A stretch of 64,000 nt of DNA, taken from Patescibacteria group bacterium. GTDB lineage: Bacteria; Patescibacteriota; Patescibacteriia; Patescibacteriales; WJLG01. A program made the translations under genes and the position numbers. Where the stretch lies: NCBI GenBank assembly GCA_028707065.1, contig JAQTUZ010000002.1, positions 6,513 through 70,512 of the forward strand, in the 5' to 3' direction. Shown piece by piece: positions 1,023 through 60,732 of this stretch. Below the pieces are notes generated by a model. It did not search any database, was not told the DNA's origin, and saw only the letters and a program-made list of their open reading frames with translations. Every line of letters starts with the position of its first letter. Position 1 is the first letter of the stretch.

Positions 1023-2252
1023 TTATTTTCCCACAAACTCAACTTCTCCGCCTTTTCCGACCGCTTTAGCAATGATACTTCTGATCATTTCCCGCGTTAC
1101 GTCCCGGCCGCCGAGCCCGACAATGAAATTTTTAACGTTGGCGTTGATTTTTCCCTGCACCGCCGCTTTTACCTCCAGATATAATGGTCCGGCATAGCCT
1201 AAGGAAACGGCTTTTTCCGCGACCGCGACATTTTTGGCGCCGACATCTTTCAAAATTTTTATTATCTCTTCCGCCGGAAAGGGCCGGAAAGTTTTTAATT
1301 TCAAGACGCCGATGCCGCCACCGGCACTGAATATTCCGCCGGACGATTTTTTTTCATCAATCACTTCCTTAATCGTTCCAACTACCGAGCCCATGGCGAC
1401 GATCACGGTCTTGGCCCGCGGCGATCCGTAATATTCAAGAAGTCCGTTGTCGATAATTCCCCTCTCGAGAGGGGTGGATCCGCCCCTGGCGGAGACGGGG
1501 TGTGTTAAGCTTGGAAAAGCTTTATTATATTTTTCATACTCATCTTTAATGACCGGCAACGCAGAAATCAAATCATCGTGCAATTCCTGGCGGATCTCCA
1601 TATAATCAGCCGGCGTCGCGAACGCGCCTAAAGTGCGCGGATTAGCCGGATCAAGATAGGTTCCGTTTTTCGGCTGATAATCCGGCAAGAATTTTTTAAT
1701 GTCTTTTTCCGAGGGTATAGAAACTTCTTCATAGGAATGGGTTAAGACAAAGCCGTCGACGTTGACTATCACCGGCAGATTTAATTTTTCGGCGATTTTG
1801 TAAGCCAAAATATGTTGCGTCACCGCTTCCTGATGATTTTCCGCGAACAGCAAAATCCAGCCGGCATCGCGGATCGTCATCACGTCCTGGGCATCGTTCC
1901 AAATATTGATCGGCGCGGAAACGGCGCGGTTGGCGCAAGTGATCACCACCGGCAAGCGCATGCCGGCGATATTGAAAATCACCTCGGTCATCAATAATAA
2001 TCCTTGCGAGCTGGTTGAACTGTAAACGCGGACGCCGGTCGCCGAAGCGCCCAAGATTATGGAGGCGGCGGCGAATTCGCTTTCGGCCCGCACGTATTCA
2101 TAATCAGCTTCGCCATCGGCTTTGAAGTGCGCCAAATCTTCCACGATATGCGTTTGCGGCGTGATCGGATAAGCGGAAACAACTGAAGGTTTTATGTTCT
2201 TGATTGTTAAGGCAATAGCTCTTGATCCTTCAAGAATTTGTGGCTTAGACAT
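1023..2252 (-). CDS. porA: pyruvate/2-oxoacid:ferredoxin oxidoreductase, alpha subunit
   Basis: 409-aa ORF. The N-terminus MSKPQILEGSRAIALTIKNIKPSVVSAYPITPQTHIVE and the length fit alpha subunits of four-subunit 2-oxoacid:ferredoxin oxidoreductases. Follows gamma and delta subunit genes in the canonical G-D-A order. Confidence 0.9.
   Translation of the reverse strand: MSKPQILEGSRAIALTIKNIKPSVVSAYPITPQTHIVEDLAHFKADGEADYEYVRAESEFAAASIILGASATGVRVYSSTSSQGLLLMTEVIFNIAGMRLPVVITCANRAVSAPINIWNDAQDVMTIRDAGWILLFAENHQEAVTQHILAYKIAEKLNLPVIVNVDGFVLTHSYEEVSIPSEKDIKKFLPDYQPKNGTYLDPANPRTLGAFATPADYMEIRQELHDDLISALPVIKDEYEKYNKAFPSLTHPVSARGGSTPLERGIIDNGLLEYYGSPRAKTVIVAMGSVVGTIKEVIDEKKSSGGIFSAGGGIGVLKLKTFRPFPAEEIIKILKDVGAKNVAVAEKAVSLGYAGPLYLEVKAAVQGKINANVKNFIVGLGGRDVTREMIRSIIAKAVGKGGEVEFVGK
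1457..1506. repeat. family A double-hairpin element, in frame inside porA
   Basis: ttcccctctcgagaggggtggatccgcccctggcggagacggggtgtgtt: hairpins cccctc/gagggg and ccgcc/ggcgg plus a cggggtgtgt tail. The coding strand reads ..HPVSARGGSTPLERGI... Confidence 0.85.
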
Positions 2253-4503: not shown

Positions 4504-5397
4504 ATGAAGATTTTTTCTTGGAATGTAAATGGTATAAGAGCGGTAGTAAAAAAAGGCTTTACGGATTTTTTAAAGAAAGAAAGACCCGATATTTTATGTT
4601 TGCAGGAAATCAAGATTTCCGCTGACGCGCGCAATAAGGAAATTTTTGATTTTGCCGGCTATCAGGAATTCTGGCATTCGGCTCTGCGGCCCGGCTATTC
4701 GGGGACGATGACTTTGGTCAAGGACGATCTTGTCATTGCGAAGAGCGGAAACTCCCAAGTTTTAACACACCCCGTCTCGCGCGGCAGTGATTCTCGGAAA
4801 CCCACCCCGTCCGGCCAGGGGCCGTCCACCCCTCCCGAGGAGGGGAATAGCCACCCCTCCCGAGAGGGGAATAAATTAATTGGGCTCATAGATTTTCCCG
4901 ACGACCCGGAGGGGCGGGTGCAGATTTTGGAATTCGCTAAATTCTATCTGGCCAATGTTTATTTTCCGAACGCCAATCATGAATTGTCGCGGCTGGATTT
5001 TAAATTGAAATTCAATGACCGCTTGTTGAAATTTTTGAAGAAGTTGGAAAAGACCAAGCCGTTAGTTGTCTGCGGCGATTATAACGTCGCTCATGAGCCG
5101 ATCGATCTTTTCCATCCCAAAGAGAACGAAGGCAACGCCGGCTATACGGAGGAAGAGCGGGACTGGATGACTAAGTTCTTAAAAGCCGGTTTTGTCGATA
5201 CTTTCCGCGCCCAAAATCCTAATAAGGCGCAATATTCCTGGTGGAGTTTCCGGATGAACGTCCGAGCGCGTAATATCGGCTGGCGTATTGACTATTTTTG
5301 CGTTTCGTGGTATCTTTTTAAGTCAGTTAAAAGTTCTTTCATAATGGATAAAATACAAGGTTCTGACCATTGCCCGGTCGGGATCGAATTAAAATAA
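4504..5397 (+). CDS. xth: exodeoxyribonuclease III (AP endonuclease)
   Basis: 297 aa. MKIFSWNVNGIRA, LCLQEIK, NVYFPN, VVCGDYNVAH, WWSFR and GSDHCPV are the ExoIII/EEP-family motifs in order. Confidence 0.9.
   Translation: MKIFSWNVNGIRAVVKKGFTDFLKKERPDILCLQEIKISADARNKEIFDFAGYQEFWHSALRPGYSGTMTLVKDDLVIAKSGNSQVLTHPVSRGSDSRKPTPSGQGPSTPPEEGNSHPSREGNKLIGLIDFPDDPEGRVQILEFAKFYLANVYFPNANHELSRLDFKLKFNDRLLKFLKKLEKTKPLVVCGDYNVAHEPIDLFHPKENEGNAGYTEEERDWMTKFLKAGFVDTFRAQNPNKAQYSWWSFRMNVRARNIGWRIDYFCVSWYLFKSVKSSFIMDKIQGSDHCPVGIELK
4764..4872. repeat. compound family A elements (inverted orientation), in frame inside xth
   Basis: A partial copy, a full copy (acccaccccgtccggccaggggccgtccacccctcccgaggaggggaa) and an extra half (ccacccctcccgagaggggaat). 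Encodes ..HPVSRGSDSRKPTPSGQGPSTPPEEGNSHPSREGN.. between conserved ExoIII blocks. Confidence 0.85.
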
Positions 5398-6076: not shown

Positions 6077-9000
6077 ATGCAAGACAAATTCGATCATAAA
6101 GGAATTGAAAACAAGTGGCACGGGGTCTGGGAAGAAGAAAAGATCTATCTGACCCCCTCGGCTTCGCTCGGGGCAGGCGGCGAGGATAAAGCCAGGCCGA
6201 AATATTATGTTTTGGATATGTTTCCTTATCCTTCGGGCGCCGGGTTGCATGTCGGCCATCCCAAAGGTTATATCGCCACGGATATTTTGGCGCGGATGAA
6301 AATGATGAGCGGTTTTAATGTTTTGCATCCGATTGGCTGGGACGCTTTCGGCTTGCCGGCGGAAAATTACGCTCTAAAGAATAAAGTTCATCCGCGGATC
6401 GCCACCGAAAAAAATATCGCCACCTTCAAGAGCCAATTGGAAAAGATCGGCCTGACTTATGATTGGGAGCGGGAAATAAATACTACTGACCCGGAATATT
6501 ATAAATGGACGCAATGGGCTTTCATCAAGATGTGGGAAAAAGGCTTGGCTTATGAATCGACCGAGCCGATCATCTGGTGTCCGACTTGCCAGACCGGGCT
6601 GGCGATGGAAGATCTGGAAAACGGCAAATGCGAGCGCTGCGAATCCGAAGTGGTGCGCAAACCGATGCGCCAATGGGTGATCAAGATTACTGATTATGCC
6701 GAGCGATTATTGAACGATTTGGATAAGCTTTCCGGCTGGGAAGATTCGATTAAAGAAATGCAACGCAACTGGATCGGGCGTTCGGAAGGAGCCGAAGTGA
6801 AGTTTGAAGTAAGAAGTAAGAAGGCAGAAGAAAAAAAGTCCCCCCTTGCTTGCCCCGCAAAGCGAAGCGATGCGTGGGAGAGGGGTGGCGCCGCCGCGGC
6901 GACGGGGTGTGTGACGGTTTTTACAACTCGTCCCGATACTTTGTTCGGTTGTACTTATGTGGTTTTGGCGCCGGAACATCCGGAAATTGGAAATTGGAAA
7001 TTGGAAATTGGAAATTGGAAAGAAGTTGAAAGTTATATTAATGAAGCCAAGAAAAAAACTGATCTTCAACGTACTGATTTAAACAAGGATAAGTTTGGAG
7101 TAAAGCTTGAGGGCGTGATGGCAGTCAATCCGGCGAATCAGGAAGAAGTGCCGGTGTTCATCGCCGATTATGTCCTGCCGAATTATGGCACGGGCGCGAT
7201 CATGGCCGTGCCGGCGCATGATCAGCGCGATTTTGAATTCGCGCAAAAATATGATTTGCCGATTAGAACTGTCGTCACAACTAATAAAGATAATATTGTT
7301 GGTGTCGGCGCGATGATCGAAACGAAAGAAGGAAAATTTTTATTTCAAAGACGAGATAAAAAAACTGATCGGAATCCGGGCATGCTGTCTTTTTTTGGCG
7401 GTGGCACAGAAAATAATGAAGACACCAAAGAAACGTTAAAACGAGAAATAAAGGAAGAATTAAACTTGGAAATAAAAAACAATTTTGTTTTATTGAATAA
7501 ATTCGAAAGTATTAATCATCCCGGAAGATTTTTAGATCTTTTTTACGTTAATAATGTTGACGAGGAAAACATGAAGCTTGGTGAAGGAGCGGCGATTGAA
7601 AAATTTGATTTAGCAGAAGCTTTACAGCGCGACGATGTTACGCCGTTTACAAAAAATGTCATAAAATATTTGCAAGATAAAAAATGTTTTACCGAAGAAG
7701 GCATAAATGAGAATTCCGATTTTCTCGATGGCTTAAAAACAGTCGAGGCGAAGAAGAAGATGATCGAGTGGCTGGAAAAAGAGGGGAAGGGGAAAAGAAA
7801 AATTAATTACAAATTGAATGACTGGGTTTTTTCAAGACAGAGATATTGGGGCGAGCCGATCCCGATGGTGCATTGCGAGAAGTGCGGGACCGTGCCGGTT
7901 GCGGAAAAAGATCTGCCGGTGCGCTTGCCCGAAGTTGAACATTATGAACCGACCGGAACAGGGGAATCGCCTTTGGCAAATATCACTGAATGGGTAAATA
8001 CGACCTGCCCGAAATGCGGCGGCCCGGCCAAGCGCGAAACCAATACTATGCCGCAATGGGCCGGTTCGTCTTGGTATTATTTAAGATATATTGATCCGAA
8101 AAATAATCAGGCCTTAGTTGATAAAGAGAAAGAAAAATATTGGTCGCCGGTGGATTTTTACGTCGGCGGCGCCGAGCATGCTACGCGCCATCTTATTTAC
8201 GCGCGCTTTTGGCATAAATTTTTGTTTGATATCGGCGTAGTGAATTACGAAGAGCCGTTTGCCAAATTTACTCATGTCGGCTTGATCATGGCCGAAGATG
8301 GGCGGAAAATGTCCAAGCGCTGGGGCAATGTCATTAATCCGGATGATATAATAGAAAAATTCGGCGCGGACGCGATGCGCGTTTATGAAATGTTTATGGG
8401 ACCATTCACTCAATCTTGCGCCTGGAGCACCAACGGCTTGACCGGCGCGCGTAAATTTTTGGATAAGGTATGGGTCATTGCGGAAAATTCCCCTCTCGAG
8501 AGGGGTGGCGCGCCCCTGGCGCGACGGGGTGTGTTAACGCCGGATAGCACTAAAGAAATTAAATCCTTGCTTCATAAAACAATCAAAAAGGTTTCCGAAG
8601 ATATCGCGGACTTTAAATTTAACACTTGCATTTCGGCAATGATGATTTTGTCCAATATGATTGAGGTGGCAACCACCCCTGACCCCTCCTTGGAAAGGAG
8701 GGGGATTGGCAAAGAAGATTTTGCTAAATTCATCCAGATTCTCGCGCCGTTCGCGCCGCATCTGGCTGAAGAAATCTGGCGGGAGAAATTAGGCAATAAA
8801 GAAAGCGTTTTCAAATCCGCCTGGCCTGAATATGATAAAGAATTGATCAAAGATGAAACGGTAAATTTGGTAGTGCAGGTTAACGGAAAATTGCGCGCGA
8901 CTATCTCCGTTCCCGCGGGAATTTCTAAAGATGAAGCCAGGGATTTGGTTTTAAAAAATGAGAATGTAAAAAAATGGCTGGCAGGGAAAAAAGTGACGAG

Positions 9001-9085
9001 GGATATTTATGTTCCAGACAAACTTTTTAATATCGTGGTTGTCGAATCTTTTGATATGAAGAGCCTTGCAAATCCTAATTCGTGA
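6077..9085 (+). CDS. leuS: leucyl-tRNA synthetase carrying an internal Nudix-domain insertion and several repeat-encoded inserts
   Basis: 1002 aa. Class I signatures PYPSGAGLHVGH (HIGH) and KMSKR (KMSKS). LeuRS-specific blocks RNWIGRSEGAEV, VFTTRPDTLFG, HDQRDFEFAQKY, SRQRYWGEPIP and VQVNGKLRA. Confidence 0.95.
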   Translation: MQDKFDHKGIENKWHGVWEEEKIYLTPSASLGAGGEDKARPKYYVLDMFPYPSGAGLHVGHPKGYIATDILARMKMMSGFNVLHPIGWDAFGLPAENYALKNKVHPRIATEKNIATFKSQLEKIGLTYDWEREINTTDPEYYKWTQWAFIKMWEKGLAYESTEPIIWCPTCQTGLAMEDLENGKCERCESEVVRKPMRQWVIKITDYAERLLNDLDKLSGWEDSIKEMQRNWIGRSEGAEVKFEVRSKKAEEKKSPLACPAKRSDAWERGGAAAATGCVTVFTTRPDTLFGCTYVVLAPEHPEIGNWKLEIGNWKEVESYINEAKKKTDLQRTDLNKDKFGVKLEGVMAVNPANQEEVPVFIADYVLPNYGTGAIMAVPAHDQRDFEFAQKYDLPIRTVVTTNKDNIVGVGAMIETKEGKFLFQRRDKKTDRNPGMLSFFGGGTENNEDTKETLKREIKEELNLEIKNNFVLLNKFESINHPGRFLDLFYVNNVDEENMKLGEGAAIEKFDLAEALQRDDVTPFTKNVIKYLQDKKCFTEEGINENSDFLDGLKTVEAKKKMIEWLEKEGKGKRKINYKLNDWVFSRQRYWGEPIPMVHCEKCGTVPVAEKDLPVRLPEVEHYEPTGTGESPLANITEWVNTTCPKCGGPAKRETNTMPQWAGSSWYYLRYIDPKNNQALVDKEKEKYWSPVDFYVGGAEHATRHLIYARFWHKFLFDIGVVNYEEPFAKFTHVGLIMAEDGRKMSKRWGNVINPDDIIEKFGADAMRVYEMFMGPFTQSCAWSTNGLTGARKFLDKVWVIAENSPLERGGAPLARRGVLTPDSTKEIKSLLHKTIKKVSEDIADFKFNTCISAMMILSNMIEVATTPDPSLERRGIGKEDFAKFIQILAPFAPHLAEEIWREKLGNKESVFKSAWPEYDKELIKDETVNLVVQVNGKLRATISVPAGISKDEARDLVLKNENVKKWLAGKKVTRDIYVPDKLFNIVVVESFDMKSLANPNS
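6794..6913. repeat. compound repeat insert in leuS (AGAAGTAAG words + family A-like element)
   Basis: gaagtgaagtttgaagtaagaagtaagaaggcagaag (same word as 27134-27160), then ..gggagaggggtggcgccgccgcggcgacggggtgtgtg. Encodes RSKKAEEKKSPLACPAKRSDAWERGGAAAATGC between the conserved SEGAEV and VFTTRPDT blocks. Confidence 0.8.
6982..7020. repeat. GGAAATT heptamer tandem array inside leuS
   Basis: ggaaatt x5 then ggaaag. Encodes EIGNWKLEIGNWK right after LAPEHP. Same heptamer at 10886-10915 and 29207-29290. Confidence 0.9.
7278..7690 (+). other. Nudix hydrolase domain embedded in LeuRS
   Basis: Residues about 401-538. The Nudix box GGGTENNEDTKETLKREIKEELNL at 7397-7468 fits G-x5-E-x7-REUxEE, with the trailing G replaced by N. 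The segment is visibly AT-richer than the flanking leuS sequence. Confidence 0.75.
8488..8535. repeat. family A double-hairpin element, in frame inside leuS
   Basis: ttcccctctcgagaggggtggcgcgcccctggcgcgacggggtgtgtt. Encodes NSPLERGGAPLARRGVL. Confidence 0.85.
8671..8705. repeat. family B hairpin element, in frame inside leuS
   Basis: aaccacccctgacccctccttggaaaggaggggga. Encodes TTPDPSLERRGI. Confidence 0.85.
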
Positions 9086-22119: not shown

Positions 22120-22180
22120 GCTTCCGCTCGTTCTTCTTCATGGAGCTCGCGACACAATTGTTGCGGGCTCTCTTTTTTTA

Positions 22181-22228
22181 TTCCCCTCCCCGGGAGGGGT
22201 GGCCGCCCCGGGCGGACGGGGTGGGTAT
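22181..22228. repeat. family A double-hairpin element (intergenic)
   Basis: ttcccctccccgggaggggtggccgccccgggcggacggggtgggtat. Confidence 0.85.
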
Positions 22229-22294
22229 ATTCCCGACAATATTAATAAATTTTCAAAAATCTTTGCCACTTTTTTAAAAAAAAGTGGCGCAAAC

Positions 22295-22331
22295 AAACCA
22301 CCCCCAAACCCCTCCTTGGAAAGGAGGGGAG
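22295..22331. repeat. family B hairpin element (intergenic)
   Basis: aaaccacccccaaacccctccttggaaaggaggggag, preceded by the perfect palindrome gccacttttttaaaaaaaagtggc (22265-22288). Confidence 0.85.
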
Positions 22332-22545
22332 ACGCGCAGGGCTTGTTTCCTATCACTCCGCCAGTCCCGCCGCGGCGGGATACGCTGCGTGATGACGGAA
22401 ATTTTCCAATGCGCGCTATAAAGGAATTTATTTAAATTTAGGTATATAAATACTAAAAATTGCAATCAGATAAATTATGGAAAAAGGCGATTTTTATTTG
22501 TCTTGCTCCATGTTTTATGCTCTATGTTCCGTGTCTTTTTCCCTA

Positions 22546-35554: not shown

Positions 35555-35579
35555 TTGCATTTTTTTTCACAGTAATAAT

Positions 35580-35617
35580 GAGCCCGGTTCGAAATCGAAC
35601 CGGGCTCAAATTTTTTT
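35580..35617. terminator. strong hairpin between convergent genes (bidirectional terminator candidate)
   Basis: gagcccggttcgaaatcgaaccgggctc (12-bp stem) followed by aaattttttt on the + strand. Lies 6 nt beyond the recG stop on the - strand. Confidence 0.6.
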
Positions 35618-37845: not shown

Positions 37846-37898
37846 AAATATAACGCGAATACTGCGAATTTTACGCGAATACAACGAACTATTTTTAA

Positions 37899-37946
37899 TT
37901 CCCCTCCGCGGGAGGGGTGGTCCGCCCTGGGCGGACCGGGGTGTGT
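37899..37946. repeat. family A double-hairpin element (intergenic, upstream of recG)
   Basis: ttcccctccgcgggaggggtggtccgccctgggcggaccggggtgtgt, followed by catcc. Confidence 0.85.
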
Positions 37947-38014
37947 CATCCGATTCATAGAGTTTGCGGTATTCGCATTATGTATCTGATTTTACCTTTT
38001 TTCACCTTTTATTT

Positions 38015-39748: not shown

Positions 39749-39752
39749 AAAT

Positions 39753-40094
39753 TGTGCTCTCGACAGGAAATCGAATCGTCGCTTCGCTCCTCTTTGGAAG
39801 GGGTTTCCACCCCTTCCAATACCATCCCCCGAAAACAGCGGGGAACTACCGTTCCCCAAACCCCTCCCGTTCGATTCCTGTCGGACAAAACAAAAACGGC
39901 CGCCGATGCGTCCGCTTTTGTTTTGTGCTCTCGACAGGAAATCGAATCGTCGCTTCGCTCCTCTTTGGAAGGGGTTTTCACCCCTTCCAATACCATCCCC
40001 CGAAAACAGCGGGGAACTACCGTTCCCCAAACCCCTCCCGTTCGATTCCTGTCGGACAAAACAAAAACGGCCGCCGATGCGTCCGCTTTTGTTT
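39753..40094. repeat. two tandem 171-bp units, each starting with a copy of the tRNA-Arg 3' end
   Basis: Units 39753-39923 and 39924-40094 differ at one base that I could see. Each begins tgtgctctcgacaggaaatcgaa (compare the tRNA 3' end tgtgctctcgacaggaatcgaa at 40095) and carries an inverted partner gttcgattcctgtcggac. Each holds three internal hairpins (ttggaagggg/ccccttccaa, ccccg/cgggg, gggaac/gttccc) and a terminator-like aaaacaaaa..ttttgtttt hairpin. Confidence 0.9.
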
Positions 40095-40096
40095 TG

Positions 40097-40168
40097 TGCT
40101 CTCGACAGGAATCGAACCTGTATCACAAGCTTCGGAGGCCTGCGTCCTATCCGTTGAACGACGAGAGC
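40097..40168 (-). tRNA. tRNA-Arg (anticodon CCG)
   Basis: 72 nt folded by hand: acceptor GCTCTCG/CGAGAGC, D arm GTTC-AACGGATA-GGAC, anticodon arm CAGGC-CTCCGAA-GCTTG, T arm ACAGG-TTCGATT-CCTGT, discriminator A. Confidence 0.85.
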
Positions 40169-40233
40169 TAAATGTGTTTCTTTATCTTTTTTTACTTTGT
40201 AAAAAGTGTAAAACGCGCCCGGCCCTGCCGGGC

Positions 40234-40283
40234 ATCCGTTGCCACCCAGAGGGTGGTCCGCCTTTGGCGGAAACGACGAGAGC
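40234..40283 (-). pseudogene. tRNA-Arg 5' fragment (acceptor + D arm) interrupted by a 30-bp double-hairpin element
   Basis: The plus strand reads atccgttg[ccacccagagggtggtccgcctttggcgga]aacgacgagagc. Without the bracketed insert (40242-40271) it equals the 5' 20 nt of the CCG tRNA. No anticodon or T arm follows; a hairpin gcccggc/gccgggc follows instead. Confidence 0.6.
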
Positions 40284-40446
40284 TTCTAGTTAATTATAAA
40301 TTAAAAATTATAAATTATAAATAGGCGATTTGTTCATAACAAATAAAACCCTTCAAAGGGTTCTATTTGTACAATTTTTCATCTTTAATTTTTAATTGAT
40401 TCATGTGCCCTTATGGGGACTGGATTGGAACCGAATACTGCGGGAA

Positions 40447-41061
40447 TTAAGGTTTTGGCAGGGAGTGCTCCAGTCCGCCGAATAAGCGTTTCCTGTATAT
40501 GGAAAAAAGTATTAACGTGTTCGCAATAAGTAAATAGATTTGAAATGCAGAATTTTCTATGTTCCATCTTGGAATAGACGGAAGAACCAACACTACTGCA
40601 ACCAGGCTAGCAATAAAGGTAACCCCAGTCTCTGTTTCGGGATGCGTCCAGGCTTTACGAATTGTAGGAAGTGATGCAAGGCCATCACCAAGAGCCGCTA
40701 GTAGTATTGCACTACGAGGAGAATCAGCTAACGCCCAAACAATTAGTGCCAACACCGAACATAAACCACACGCCAAATCAAATCTTGTTAGTTTCCAATA
40801 GCTCTGCTTATTAACAAATGAAACAAGAAAGACGAGTAAGGGTAAAAAACCAGCGAGGAAAATTCTAACCGTTGCCCAAACATCAGCGTGGGCATAAAGA
40901 GCGGCGGCAGTTCCTATAAGTGGGGCAAGTGCCCACATAGACCAAGAGATGCGGTTGGGTTTTGTTTTACCATTCAACGTATCTCGAATATAGGCAAATG
41001 AGCCAAGCACGCTTATAACCGCACTTATTATGACCAGCCAATGAATTAAAGGTAATCCCAT
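40447..41061 (-). CDS. hypothetical polytopic membrane protein
   Basis: 204 aa with about 6-7 hydrophobic helices, no motif recognised. It is the only gene between the two tRNA-Arg clusters. A hairpin with a T-rich tract lies downstream at about 40330-40364. Confidence 0.55.
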   Translation of the reverse strand: MGLPLIHWLVIISAVISVLGSFAYIRDTLNGKTKPNRISWSMWALAPLIGTAAALYAHADVWATVRIFLAGFLPLLVFLVSFVNKQSYWKLTRFDLACGLCSVLALIVWALADSPRSAILLAALGDGLASLPTIRKAWTHPETETGVTFIASLVAVVLVLPSIPRWNIENSAFQIYLLIANTLILFSIYRKRLFGGLEHSLPKP

Positions 41062-41104
41062 ATTTGTAGCTTATCGTAGATTCAAATAGTTTATTATGGA
41101 TTGG

Positions 41105-41200
41105 TGCTCTCGGCAGGAATCGAACCTGCATTACAAGATCCGCAATCTTGCGTCCTATCCATTGCCACCCAGTGGGTGGTCACCCTCTGGGTGAAACGAC
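41105..41200 (-). pseudogene. tRNA-Arg(GCG) near-full duplicate with a 30-bp double-hairpin element in the D arm and no 5' acceptor strand
   Basis: 41105-41164 is identical to the 3' 60 nt of the adjacent tRNA. Then comes the insert ccacccagtgggtggtcaccctctgggtga (41165-41194), then aacgac, then unrelated ttgtgtaa instead of gagagc. Confidence 0.65.
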
Positions 41201-41209
41201 TTGTGTAAG

Positions 41210-41281
41210 TGCTCTCGGCAGGAATCGAACCTGCATTACAAGATCCGCAATCTTGCGTCCTATCCATTGAACGACGAGAGC
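41210..41281 (-). tRNA. tRNA-Arg (anticodon GCG)
   Basis: 72 nt: acceptor GCTCTCG/CGAGAGC, D arm GTTC-AATGGATA-GGAC, anticodon arm CAAGA-TTGCGGA-TCTTG, T arm GCAGG-TTCGATT-CCTGC, discriminator A. Confidence 0.8.
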
Positions 41282-41290
41282 TCAATAATT

Positions 41291-41377
41291 TATCCATTGC
41301 CCGCTACATCGGCCTTTGGCCGTGAGCGGGTCCGCGCACGCCGCATCTGGCGGCGATGTCGCGGAAACGACGGGCGC
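41291..41377 (-). pseudogene. tRNA 5' fragment interrupted by a 66-bp double-hairpin element at the same D-arm position
   Basis: tatccattg[cccgct..agcgggtccgcg..cgcgga]aacgacgggcgc. Acceptor strand GCGCCCG. Insert at 41300-41365. Confidence 0.55.
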
Positions 41378-41388
41378 TTTTTTAAAAT

Positions 41389-41423
41389 ACCCCTCCTTTC
41401 CAAGGAGGGGATGGGGTGGTTTG
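41389..41423. repeat. family B hairpin element (intergenic)
   Basis: acccctcctttccaaggaggggatggggtggtttg. Confidence 0.85.
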
Positions 41424-41445
41424 ATTCACCGCTATGAACATCTTG

Positions 41446-42021
41446 CTATAACCGGAACAGTTTTGTCAACTGTTCGGACAGGGGGATGGTCGTTCTTTCC
41501 AGATTTTCTTTGACGTATTTAAGCAGATTCCGGCGGATGACGATCGGATTCATATCATCCAAGGGGATGGAAAAGCGGGTGCGGGCGAAATTGACCAGCC
41601 AAAAAAGCCAGCTATAGCGGGCCGGTTCGTTGGCCGGCAAAGCGGGTCGGGCAAATCTCTTGAATTCCAAATAAAGATTTTTTACTCCCTCGTCCGGCTC
41701 ATAAATTATAAAAAAATCCTGAATAAGGCCATAATCATAAAATTCTTTGCCCACTGTCACGCCCCGATCGCTTAAAGTGACATTAAGCGATCCTGGTCTG
41801 CCACCGTCAAAAATTACGAGCAAGACCGCCGCAAAAATAATAATGATGGCAAAAATCAGATTTTGCGTAAAAATCGCGTAGGTCAAAAGAGCGATGGCGA
41901 TGAGCGAGTAGATCGCGTACCAAAGCTTTGTTTTCCCTTCGCTTTGATATTCGGGTATTTGCCAGCTGATGACGTCGGTTTCGGATTTGATGTCTTGAGT
42001 CGGCTTGTATTCTTCGGCCAT
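41446..42021 (-). CDS. hypothetical membrane protein (two TM helices + soluble C-terminal domain)
   Basis: 191 aa. TM hairpin LWYAIYSLIAIALLTYAIF / LIFAIIIIFAAVLLVIF. No motif recognised. Confidence 0.55.
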   Translation of the reverse strand: MAEEYKPTQDIKSETDVISWQIPEYQSEGKTKLWYAIYSLIAIALLTYAIFTQNLIFAIIIIFAAVLLVIFDGGRPGSLNVTLSDRGVTVGKEFYDYGLIQDFFIIYEPDEGVKNLYLEFKRFARPALPANEPARYSWLFWLVNFARTRFSIPLDDMNPIVIRRNLLKYVKENLERTTIPLSEQLTKLFRL

Positions 42022-42138: not shown

Positions 42139-42228
42139 GGAGAGGTGGCTGAGTGGCTGAAAGCAGCACACTGCTAATGTGTTAACCTAGCAATAGGTTC
42201 ATGGGTTCGAATCCCATCCTCTCCGCCA
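42139..42228 (+). tRNA. tRNA-Ser (anticodon GCT), class II with long variable arm, CCA encoded
   Basis: GGAGAGG..CCTCTCC acceptor, anticodon loop CTGCTAA, variable-arm hairpin aacct-agcaat-aggtt, T arm ATGGG-TTCGAAT-CCCAT, then GCCA. Confidence 0.9.
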
Positions 42229-60534: not shown

Positions 60535-60732
60535 TTAAGCCGGGTAAAACCGGGCGCCTAAACTCGTAAGACCTCTTGCGGGCATGGTGCGAAAACTCGT
60601 TGAAAATACTGATCCCCACGATCAGCGACTTTTCAACGAGTCATATCTGGAAACGGGTATGGGACCGCAAGGTCTAGCTGGCGTGGGGTTTAGTGTTTCT
60701 ATGACCAGCTAAACCACTTAGTTGGTTTTTTA
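60535..60732 (+). ncRNA. candidate structured RNA / 5' leader of unknown class upstream of the thermonuclease gene
   Basis: tataat at 60522-60527. Nested helices: agacct(c)ttgcgg 60569-60581 with accgcaaggtct 60664-75; perfect 12-bp actcgttgaaaa/ttttcaacgagt (60594-605 / 60629-40) enclosing ctgatc/gatcag. Terminator-like accagct/agttggt + tttttt at 60704-60732. Confidence 0.35.

Follow-up and report, generated by a model that had tools for sequence, protein, structure and literature searches.

GC-hairpin-interrupted tRNA-Arg fragments in a Patescibacteria genome as probable remnants of small GIY-YIG nuclease cassettes

Classic integrative elements that target transfer RNA (tRNA) genes replace the 3' part of the tRNA and use a tyrosine integrase. 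Repetitive extragenic palindromic (REP) sequences and bacterial interspersed mosaic elements (BIMEs), IS200/IS605-derived elements and the Rickettsia palindromic elements are short, GC-rich palindromic units that occur as inverted pairs and are repeated in the genome. Archaeal tRNA introns and split tRNAs feature short GC-rich inserts at several non-anticodon positions and genes in pieces, and a group I intron in a tRNA gene has a ribozyme core of about 200 nucleotides (nt) or more and usually occupies the anticodon loop. Bacteria of the Candidate Phyla Radiation (CPR) have very small genomes, in which each tRNA gene is usually present only once. In phage T4, SegB is a free-standing GIY-YIG homing endonuclease in a tRNA gene region (PMC2330249). 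The ribosomal RNA (rRNA) genes of CPR bacteria hold short insertions without an open reading frame (ORF) as well as some that encode GIY-YIG proteins and are neither group I nor group II introns; the insertions are found mostly at the tips or bases of stem-loops (PMC11270868). The present analysis deals with a stretch of 64,000 nt (the window) from a Patescibacteria group bacterium (GenBank assembly GCA_028707065.1, contig JAQTUZ010000002.1, positions 6,513 to 70,512), in which three tRNA-Arg copies are interrupted by pairs of GC hairpins. With moderate confidence, these copies are read as remnants of small selfish cassettes with a GIY-YIG nuclease gene, which invaded tRNA-Arg repeatedly and have here lost that gene. 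An earlier prediction for this region (the original prediction), in which tRNA-Arg was seen as a hot-spot of repeated duplication and insertion, is borne out in that respect.

Broken tRNA-Arg copies and their hairpin inserts

All three copies, here called (a), (b) and (c), lie on the minus strand and are broken between tRNA nucleotides 12 and 13, the identical position claimed originally, and each adjoins an intact tRNA-Arg gene (GCG or CCG) that both ARAGORN and Rfam recognise, again as claimed. Their inserts of 66, 30 and 30 bp are indeed pairs of GC hairpins. The 30-nt inserts are composed of two abutting 15-nt hairpins with 6-bp stems and 3-nt loops, and in the 66-nt insert of copy (a) the outer stems are the same, but each loop encloses a second hairpin. 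Copy (a) reads GCGCCCGTCGTT, then the 66 nt, then CAATGGATAA; its acceptor strand is GCGCCCG, as against GCTCTCG in the neighbouring live tRNA, and GCGCCCG is a genuine CPR tRNA-Arg acceptor, found for example in locus L110. Copy (b) reads ..CAAGTCGTT, hairpins TCACCCAGAGGGTGA and CCACCCACTGGGTGG, then CAATGGATAGG and onwards to the tRNA 3' end, with an encoded CCA. It had been placed at 41105-41200 and described as a duplicate of its neighbour that lacks the 5' acceptor strand. The duplication stands, as the copy is identical to the live gene throughout positions 13-73, but only the first 6-7 nucleotides are missing, G7/T8-T12 being retained. Copy (c) reads GCTCTCGTCGTT, hairpins TCCGCCAAAGGCGGA and CCACCCTCTGGGTGG, then CAACGGAT, and agrees fully with the 5' end of tRNA-Arg(CCG). 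It is as described before, except that a third hairpin, GCCCGGCAGGGCCGGGC, followed by GCGTTTT, sits just outside the segment that had been delimited.

The inserts are related to one another, as originally supposed: the two 30-nt ones are identical at 24 of 30 positions, and two differences in the stem of the first hairpin are compensatory. The arrangement TCGTT-hairpins-CAATGGATA is common to copies (a) and (b), and the pattern GTCGTT-N30-CAAYGGAT occurs twice in the window against 0.00 occurrences expected from 100 shuffles. Single-strand folding, compared with shuffled sequence, gave z scores of -5.1 for copy (a), -2.9 for (b) and -4.3 for (c), the fold of the last (z = -4.34) being a three-way junction with a hairpin. 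Rfam returned nothing for copies (a) and (c), nor for the 171-bp units described below, either at the gathering score or at E<=10. Furthermore, promoter-like matches from a consensus scan end 10-31 nt upstream of nucleotide 1 of copy (c), and these are likely to be the original tRNA promoter, kept with the displaced 5' end.

The interrupted form is not confined to the window. The D-arm GTCGTTCAAYGGATAGGACGC is typical of Patescibacteria (CPR) in a genome-collection scan that yielded at least 120 loci, the 80 titles shown being metagenome-assembled genomes (MAGs) mostly of Patescibacteria/CPR lineages, with some called only 'bacterium' and a few 'Gammaproteobacteria'. The main comparison set consists of 127 loci (L001-L127) picked by D-arm sequence. 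A metagenome scan for GTCGTT-TCnnCCnnnGGnnGA-N15-CAAYGGA gave 8 copies on 7 contigs, each in the same orientation as an intact tRNA-Arg that follows it after 15-190 nt, and the acceptor strand of the fragment is that of its own tRNA in L121, L123, L124, L126 and L127. Two identical tandem tRNA-Arg units are present in L121, and two tandem 12/13 copies in L092 of the genome collection. Since the homologues of p191, a membrane protein encoded upstream of tRNA-Arg(GCG), are just 32-36% identical to the window protein in L121, L124 and L126, the pattern recurs across divergent CPR lineages. Its distribution is patchy: presence and absence vary between genomes at a conserved target gene, copy number varies as well, and among the 120 CPR tRNA-Arg loci listed the 12/13 form occurs in about 1-2 and any upstream 5' fragment in about 7. 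A scan of viral contigs for the hairpin-tRNA pattern gave 0 matches.

Elsewhere in CPR, hairpin pairs interrupt Ser, Glu and Arg tRNAs at 35/36, 56/57, 13/14, 9/10, 21/22, 7/8 and 16/17, and at tRNAs they were seen only in displaced partial copies beside an intact tRNA, never in live copies. For example, L123 holds an old tRNA-Arg(GCG) split exactly at 30/31, with pieces 1-30 and 31-76 around an intact tRNA-Arg(GCG), hairpin pairs at 12/13 and 56/57 and additional single hairpins. In L125, pieces 1-53 and 57-76 lie on either side of the intact tRNA, and the intact tRNA-Ser of L104 and of L076 has pieces of a tRNA-Ser(TGA) on both sides, each piece with the same hairpin pair at 35/36. BLAST comparison of CPR tRNAs with their own flanks revealed same-strand 5' fragments upstream and 3' fragments downstream, for tRNAs of Arg, Ser, Glu, Gly, Lys, Cys, Phe and Leu. 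One further 'double hairpin' candidate, L020, proved to be an ordinary tRNA-Ala and was rejected. As a separate observation, the nested intact tRNAs of L123 (tRNA-Arg 347-418) and L125 (tRNA-Arg 782-854) are flanked by inverted repeats of 12-15 bp, TTTTTCTTAAGCCC..GGGCTTAAGAAAAA and CCCCCACACCAA..TTGGTATGGGGG respectively, which extend the acceptor stem and represent leader-trailer pairing.

Given such pieces, it may be asked if the hairpin inserts are a new tRNA intervening sequence and the interrupted copies, alone or as halves joined in trans, are matured to tRNA. The inserts are clean and lie in otherwise intact tRNA sequence; removal of all inserts turns the outer gene of L123 into a perfect tRNA-Arg(GCG); the 5' acceptor strand of copy (c) could pair with the 3' strand of copy (b); and CPR rRNA genes carry many short uncharacterised insertions (PMC11270868). 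However, the window copies are incomplete, comprising nucleotides 1-21 in (a), 1-20 in (c) and all but 1-6/7 in (b), so that both acceptor strands are present in none of them, and there is always an intact tRNA of the same kind next to such a copy. Moreover, the three-way-junction fold of copy (c) has no bulge-helix-bulge and no 3-nt bulges, 30 nt are far too short for a group I intron, no Rfam intron matched up to E = 10, and the intron mode of ARAGORN found nothing real, its one hit being a false positive inside a coding region. No copy in the window could mature into a tRNA, which agrees with the original view that they are not functional tRNA genes, and an intervening sequence is hardly credible as an explanation.

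On its sequence, the double hairpin consists of one 15-nt unit (6-bp stem, 3-nt loop) duplicated in inverted orientation and makes up a quasi-palindrome of about 30 bp. Across 32 units with ten different stem sequences, 186 of 192 stem pairs are Watson-Crick, one is G.T and one A.C; among 16 pairs taken from various tRNAs and genomes, purines fill 40/48 positions of the first loops and 8/48 of the second, and the two loops of a pair are complementary at 33/48 and identical at 1/48. The pair of L122 is a perfect 30-nt palindrome. This two-fold symmetry, together with the near absence of wobble pairs, favours a role at the DNA level over a selected RNA helix, as an indication and not proof, the samples not being independent. 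The insertion points are mostly tRNA loop tips or helix junctions (D loop, anticodon loop 34-36, T loop 56/57, and 7/8), and position 12/13 is the centre of a local palindrome, CGTT-C-AACG. An attempt to assign the strand from C-rich-arm-first stems and the purine-then-pyrimidine loop order was rejected, because both properties are unchanged under reverse complementation.

The same properties have to be set against the possibility that the hairpin-bearing 5' fragments are, or have become, functional RNAs, either structured leaders or small RNAs made from the tRNA promoter. In copy (c), such an RNA would run from nucleotides 1-12 through two hairpins, nucleotides 13-20 and the third hairpin to a U-run, and its role could lie in stabilising the transcript or in mimicry of the tRNA-Arg D-arm, including the identity base A20. 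The promoter-like sites just upstream of copy (c) and the hairpin with GCGTTTT after it would suit this role, as would a placement upstream of tRNA-Arg that is kept in at least 9 lineages, compensatory changes that preserve the stems, an acceptor strand that tracks the fragment's own tRNA, and a fold far more stable than that of shuffled sequence. Nevertheless, only a few per cent of CPR tRNA-Arg loci have such a fragment, with varying copy number, and G.U pairs are almost absent although the stems exist in many variants, an unusual state for an RNA helix under selection, whereas the symmetry of the pair points to duplex DNA. Additionally, copy (b) lies downstream of its tRNA and copy (a) after a terminator-like hairpin, and duplication explains the tracking of the acceptor strand equally well. 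A functional RNA, for which copy (c) would be the best candidate, is therefore considered unlikely, and an ancestral function is disfavoured by the rarity, the varying copy number and the DNA-like symmetry.

Nuclease cassettes in tRNA genes and a proposed route of invasion

The link to nucleases comes from loci in which the displaced fragment and the intact tRNA enclose a gene. Six small ORFs of 82-94 amino acids (aa) between a hairpin-bearing fragment and an intact tRNA pass the gathering score of Pfam PF01541, and a hidden Markov model (HMM) built from those six detected 12 ORFs in the 127 loci, 11 of them at most 64 nt from a tRNA. At E<=1e-8 the nuclease family numbers over 3000 proteins, many of which bear Patescibacteria names, and the six members whose genomic context was sampled all lie against a tRNA-Ser or tRNA-Arg gene, with GC hairpins and a displaced fragment present as well. 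A GIY-YIG ORF lies inside the insert in L090, L089, L101, L104, L076, L121, L131, L141, L146, L154 and L155. The order of the cassette is constant, namely tRNA nucleotides 1..x, the hairpin pair, 5-8 tRNA nt, a leader of 5-25 nt, the ORF, and an intact tRNA that starts 2-20 nt past the stop codon or overlaps it. Full cassettes, with ORFs of 80-95 aa, are present at tRNA-Ser, Glu and Arg, and mirror-image cassettes (tRNA, ORF, displaced 3' piece) in L027 and L038.

The closest parallel to the window is L090, where a tRNA-Arg(GCG) fragment with hairpins at 7/8 and 16/17 extends to about nucleotide 21, like copies (a) and (c), and runs directly into the ORF, followed by the intact tRNA. The 'hairpin+CAAG-TCGTT' junction at the 5' edge of copy (b) recurs at 7/8 of this locus. 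Furthermore, ORF-bearing and ORF-less forms have hairpins in common, TCAGCCnnnGGCTGA with TCCGCCnnnGGCGGA being present both in L146, a tRNA-Ser cassette with an ORF, and in L127 and L092, whose tRNA-Arg 12/13 fragments have none, and contig L121 holds an ORF-bearing tRNA-Ser cassette as well as its two ORF-less tRNA-Arg units.

A possible mechanism starts with the entry of a cassette into the body of a tRNA gene, to which it would bring a replacement for part or all of the tRNA. A working tRNA would thereby be re-formed, and the former gene would leave behind a displaced 5' piece together with its promoter, or else a displaced 3' piece. The nuclease is expected to cut naive tRNA genes, and repair from the cassette-bearing allele would copy the cassette along with nearby hairpins; the replacement segment would keep the host viable, and the ORF may be transcribed from the tRNA promoter. 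The hairpin module would act at the DNA level as the structural (symmetric or cruciform) site of the nuclease. Alternatively, the palindrome might interrupt the homology that the displaced piece shares with the live gene, which would slow the loss of the cassette. Applied to the window, a displaced 5' piece would survive in each of copies (a) and (c) and a displaced 3' piece (nucleotides 7/8-76) in copy (b), the hairpin module would be represented by the inserts of 30 and 66 nt, and the nuclease ORFs would have been lost, leaving the spacers between fragment and live tRNA that Table 1 lists for (a) and (c). Displaced piece and live tRNA are different alleles in copy (a) and in L089, L104, L122, L125 and L146, and because the acceptor of copy (a) differs and yet is a genuine CPR one, the live GCG gene looks like the incoming allele, as in these other loci. 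The layout of copy (b) is matched by L104, in which the hairpin pair is duplicated on both sides of the cassette. The 171-bp units are read as a further layer, with displaced tRNA 3' ends within a conserved unit.

Several points weigh against a cassette origin of the window copies. The window holds no GIY-YIG ORF or recognisable remnant detectable with the HMM in six-frame translations at E<=1, so that its copies can be called only remnants or derivatives. No ORF-bearing cassette with the hairpin pair at tRNA-Arg 12/13 was found among the loci; all 12/13 examples are ORF-less and could thus belong to an independent, non-autonomous element, and the nucleases closest to that of L090, when sampled for 12/13 hairpins, sit at tRNA-Arg(TCG) and tRNA-Ser instead. 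The nuclease proteins are bare catalytic domains without an obvious DNA-binding domain, and their cleavage is only predicted. A nuclease that targets tRNA sequence should also cut the rebuilt tRNA, a fate that the cassette-bearing genome would have to escape. Moreover, copy (b) matches the live gene perfectly over 61 nt, yet its supposed partner (a) has a different acceptor, which calls for an extra step, for example gene conversion. Lastly, related GC hairpins occur in this genome also away from tRNAs, some of them inside ORFs.

In the rival account closest to these objections, a tiny autonomous or trans-mobilised hairpin element, resembling miniature inverted-repeat transposable elements (MITEs), REP sequences or BIMEs, inserts at GTT^CAA, and the tRNA duplications are separate events that permit its tolerance. 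The original prediction had likewise proposed TTG^AAC as a sequence-specific target of the hairpins. Such an element would account for the same break point in the three window copies and in 9 copies elsewhere, for modular hairpin units that recur outside tRNAs (TCCGCCnnnGGCGGA in the family A repeats, for example), for the nested hairpin-in-loop structures of copy (a), which suggest repeated insertion, and for the two identical tandem units of L121, which suggest recent activity. However, 39 GTTCAA sites in the window, a number at chance level, are empty, those of both live tRNAs included, and hairpin pairs occur at many other tRNA positions with unrelated flanks. They always lie in a displaced partial copy, 5-8 nt from its end, a geometry not expected from independent insertion, and they are strongly associated with GIY-YIG ORFs. 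In addition, no transposase, whether Y1 or REP-associated tyrosine transposase (RAYT), was present among the 17 ORFs scanned in the window. The proposed sequence target and an autonomous hairpin element are hence not upheld, and this account has a low probability.

If the cassette interpretation is extended beyond this locus, CPR bacteria might harbour a new class of mobile element, in which a minimal GIY-YIG nuclease and a double-hairpin palindrome of about 30 bp enter tRNA genes at points set by structure, such as loop tips and helix junctions, rebuild the tRNA with a replacement 5' part, 3' part or whole, and ride on the tRNA promoter, with ORF-less derivatives mobilised in trans or recruited as small structured RNAs. 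This extension is put forward tentatively and is open to considerable doubt. If true, it would represent a new way for a parasite to exploit an essential, highly conserved target without killing the tRNA gene. It would also help to explain the partial tRNA copies that litter CPR genomes and confuse annotation, the movement of tRNA alleles between lineages, and the unexplained short insertions in CPR structured-RNA genes. The 15-nt hairpin unit and the bare GIY-YIG catalytic domain make a simple, testable nuclease-substrate pair.

The tRNA-Arg locus and other features of the window

The genes around the locus are chromosomal and include radA, recG, a glycosyltransferase gene and a P-type ATPase gene. 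In 46 compared CPR loci, p191 homologues (tblastn) lie directly upstream of tRNA-Arg(GCG), which marks this site as an ancestral, chromosomal tRNA-Arg locus. The locus is the conserved 'p191 -> tRNA-Arg(GCG) ... tRNA-Arg(CCG)' cluster of the Patescibacteria chromosome, and its features are collected in Table 1. A genome scan by protein, with the product of the 318-aa neighbour gene as query, found no relative.

Table 1. Positions in the window of the tRNA-Arg locus features, with the component parts of each interrupted copy
Feature	Position	Strand	Basis or remark
Intact tRNA-Arg(CCG)	40096-40168	-	ARAGORN; Rfam 59.6 bits; 65 nt 3' of copy (c)
Intact tRNA-Arg(GCG)	41209-41281	-	ARAGORN; Rfam 64.4 bits; 6 nt past copy (a), 5 nt ahead of CAAG junction of copy (b)
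Intact tRNA-Ser(GCT)	42139-42228	+	ARAGORN, Rfam
Copy (a), 5' fragment of tRNA-Arg	41290-41377	-	Sequence; fold z = -5.06
Copy (a), nucleotides 1-12	41377-41366	-
Copy (a), 66-nt double hairpin	41365-41331 + 41330-41300	-
Copy (a), nucleotides 13-21	41299-41290	-
Copy (b), near-whole tRNA-Arg(GCG) copy	41104-41203	-	61/61 nt identity to intact gene
Copy (b), CAAG + TCGTT	41203-41195	-
Copy (b), 30-nt double hairpin	41194-41165	-
Copy (b), nucleotides 13-76	41164-41104	-
Partial tRNA match within copy (b)	41112-41168	-	Rfam, 29.9 bits
Copy (c), 5' fragment of tRNA-Arg(CCG) + third hairpin	40217-40283	-	20/20 nt identity
Copy (c), nucleotides 1-12	40283-40272	-
Copy (c), 30-nt double hairpin	40271-40242	-
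Copy (c), nucleotides 13-20	40241-40234	-
Copy (c), third hairpin	40233-40217	-
Three overlapping sigma-70-like promoter matches	40293-40342	-	Consensus scan, 10/12 each; pattern match only
204-aa membrane-protein gene (p204)	40447-41061	-	Leader 41062-41103
191-aa membrane-protein gene (p191)	41446-42021	-	Upstream neighbour of tRNA-Arg(GCG)
Terminator-like GC hairpin after p191	41390-41410	-	Terminator-like site in scan
Two tandem 171-bp units 3' of tRNA-Arg(CCG)	39752-40093	-	Repeats 99% identical

The GCG anticodon, which had been singled out as worth noting, is the norm of the clade. In the D-arm-selected sample, which would miss a differently built tRNA-Arg(ACG), 103 of 135 tRNA-Arg genes of CPR loci have GCG and 0 of 135 have ACG, the anticodons in use being GCG, CCG, TCT, TCG and CCT only. 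To judge from this sample, CPR bacteria may decode CGN codons without the TadA/inosine route; no search for tadA was made, and a literature search found nothing on tadA or tRNA-Arg(ACG) in CPR.

The p204 gene had been regarded as possible cargo trapped between duplicated tRNA pieces. Copy (b) is a 3' piece and copy (c) a 5' piece of different tRNA genes, so that p204 simply lies in the DNA between them; with this mismatched geometry, and since no matching att-like repeats bracket the gene, trapped cargo is not supported. The protein has no Pfam family and 1299 homologues, which are 70-87% identical across named CPR lineages; the homologue search also returned an NCBI record identical to it. 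None of the 127 compared loci has the gene at the tRNA-Arg position. The closest homologues (L128, L129 and L130) lie directly 3' of tRNA-Leu or tRNA-Gly in other contexts. The conserved p204 leader begins directly after the CCA of copy (b) and is about 84% identical to the leader of L128, which likewise starts right after a tRNA CCA. Such sequence relationships make it plausible that p204 and its leader are a tRNA-linked mobile module moving between genomes.

In each of the 171-bp units, a hairpin and a T-arm copy in inverted orientation are combined with a conserved core of about 95 nt (GGGGAAC..GTTCCCC, ..CAAAGAGGAGCGAAGCGACGA) and a directly repeated tRNA 3' end. The closing helix co-varies with the host tRNA. 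In CPR loci, homologues of the unit come after tRNAs for Arg, Ser and Gly, and a variant related to it comes after those for Gly, Lys and Cys. The units may be an undescribed element or RNA.

The ends of these units are also relevant to the idea that the tRNA fragments are attL/attR-type footprints of decayed integrase-driven elements in tRNA-Arg, with the hairpins as unrelated later additions. Partial tRNA duplications beside tRNA genes are established as the classic trace of integrative elements, and units that end in tRNA 3'-end copies are what this idea predicts. However, only these separate units show that feature; in copies (a) and (c) it is the 5' part of the tRNA that is duplicated, and not the 3' part as is normal for integrative elements. 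Fragment and tRNA are just 6-190 nt apart, no integrase is encoded by the neighbouring ORFs (33-47 kb), and the gene inside the duplication, where there is one, is a GIY-YIG nuclease and not an integrase. Footprints of this type are thus very improbable.

Repeated GC-hairpin elements of two families are scattered over the window, several of them in frame within ORFs. They lie at 1455-1510, 8486-8537, 22180-22232 and 37897-37948 and further at 2470-2505, 8670-8706, 22296-22333, 41385-41425 and 4790-4880, and the family A repeats (1455-1510, 8486-8537, 37897-37948) contain the TCCGCCnnnGGCGGA unit of the tRNA inserts. The ORFs that hold such elements encode PFOR alpha (1023-2252, minus strand), the leucyl-tRNA synthetase LeuRS (6077-9085, plus strand) and an endonuclease/exonuclease/phosphatase protein (4504-5397, plus strand). 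One repeated element serves as the terminator-like hairpin after p191, and similar copies lie inside an ORF of L009, another Patescibacteria MAG. In LeuRS the elements fall in variable linkers, and solved LeuRS structures have linkers of similar length there, so that a net insertion is not evident. The same 1002-aa LeuRS ORF has an unusual insertion, a NUDIX domain at aa 408-530 right after the editing domain.

Other features of the window include a perfect palindrome with 13-bp arms at 35579-35608, just 3' of recG (TGAGCCCGGTTCGAA + ATCGAACCGGGCTCA), the halves of which resemble a tRNA T-arm. The LOOT RNA family has a full-length match at 60555-60675 (plus strand) with 84.5 bits against a gathering score of 46.4. 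Between 50000 and 60000, a block that holds ORFs of 1090, 1086 and 786 aa and may be acquired DNA, the G+C content drops to 0.32-0.38 from about 0.45.

Comparison with known systems

A literature search found no description of hairpin-interrupted tRNA fragments or of tRNA-nested GIY-YIG genes in CPR. Like T4 SegB, the CPR nucleases are encoded by small GIY-YIG genes among or against tRNA genes, and the displaced pieces are often of another allele, as expected if a nuclease gene spreads with flanking tRNA DNA. In contrast to SegB, the CPR gene lies inside a partial duplication of the very tRNA that it abuts and is accompanied by a GC double-hairpin palindrome. The CPR proteins are bare catalytic domains of about 85 aa, chromosomal rather than of phage, with cleavage only predicted, and the window itself is without the nuclease gene.

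With the integrative elements of tRNA genes, the CPR cassettes share a replacement segment that keeps the tRNA alive, a displaced copy left as a direct repeat, and the possibility of tandem arrays. However, the 5' part with its promoter is displaced as often as the 3' part, the units measure tens to hundreds of bp, and the gene is that of a GIY-YIG nuclease. The insertions in CPR rRNA genes are found in the same clade and also in structured-RNA genes, and the hairpin sites in tRNAs are likewise loop tips or helix junctions. Those insertions sit in the sole functional copy and would have to be removed or tolerated in the RNA, whereas the hairpins described here are found only in non-functional tRNA pieces.

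The hairpin pairs resemble REP/BIME-type palindromic elements in their paired inverted units, the second being approximately the reverse complement of the first, and in the occurrence of some within window ORFs. They differ in the apparent absence, within the 64 kb covered, of a fixed short target, in their far smaller 15-nt units and in being tied to displaced tRNA fragments and GIY-YIG genes. Archaeal tRNA introns are set apart by the bacterial host, the missing bulge-helix-bulge, the incomplete pieces and the intact copy that is always adjacent, and group I introns by the inserts of only 30 and 66 nt and their place in the D-arm. Thus, while the components are known, the combination of a GIY-YIG nuclease, tRNA duplication and palindromic repeats appears to be new.

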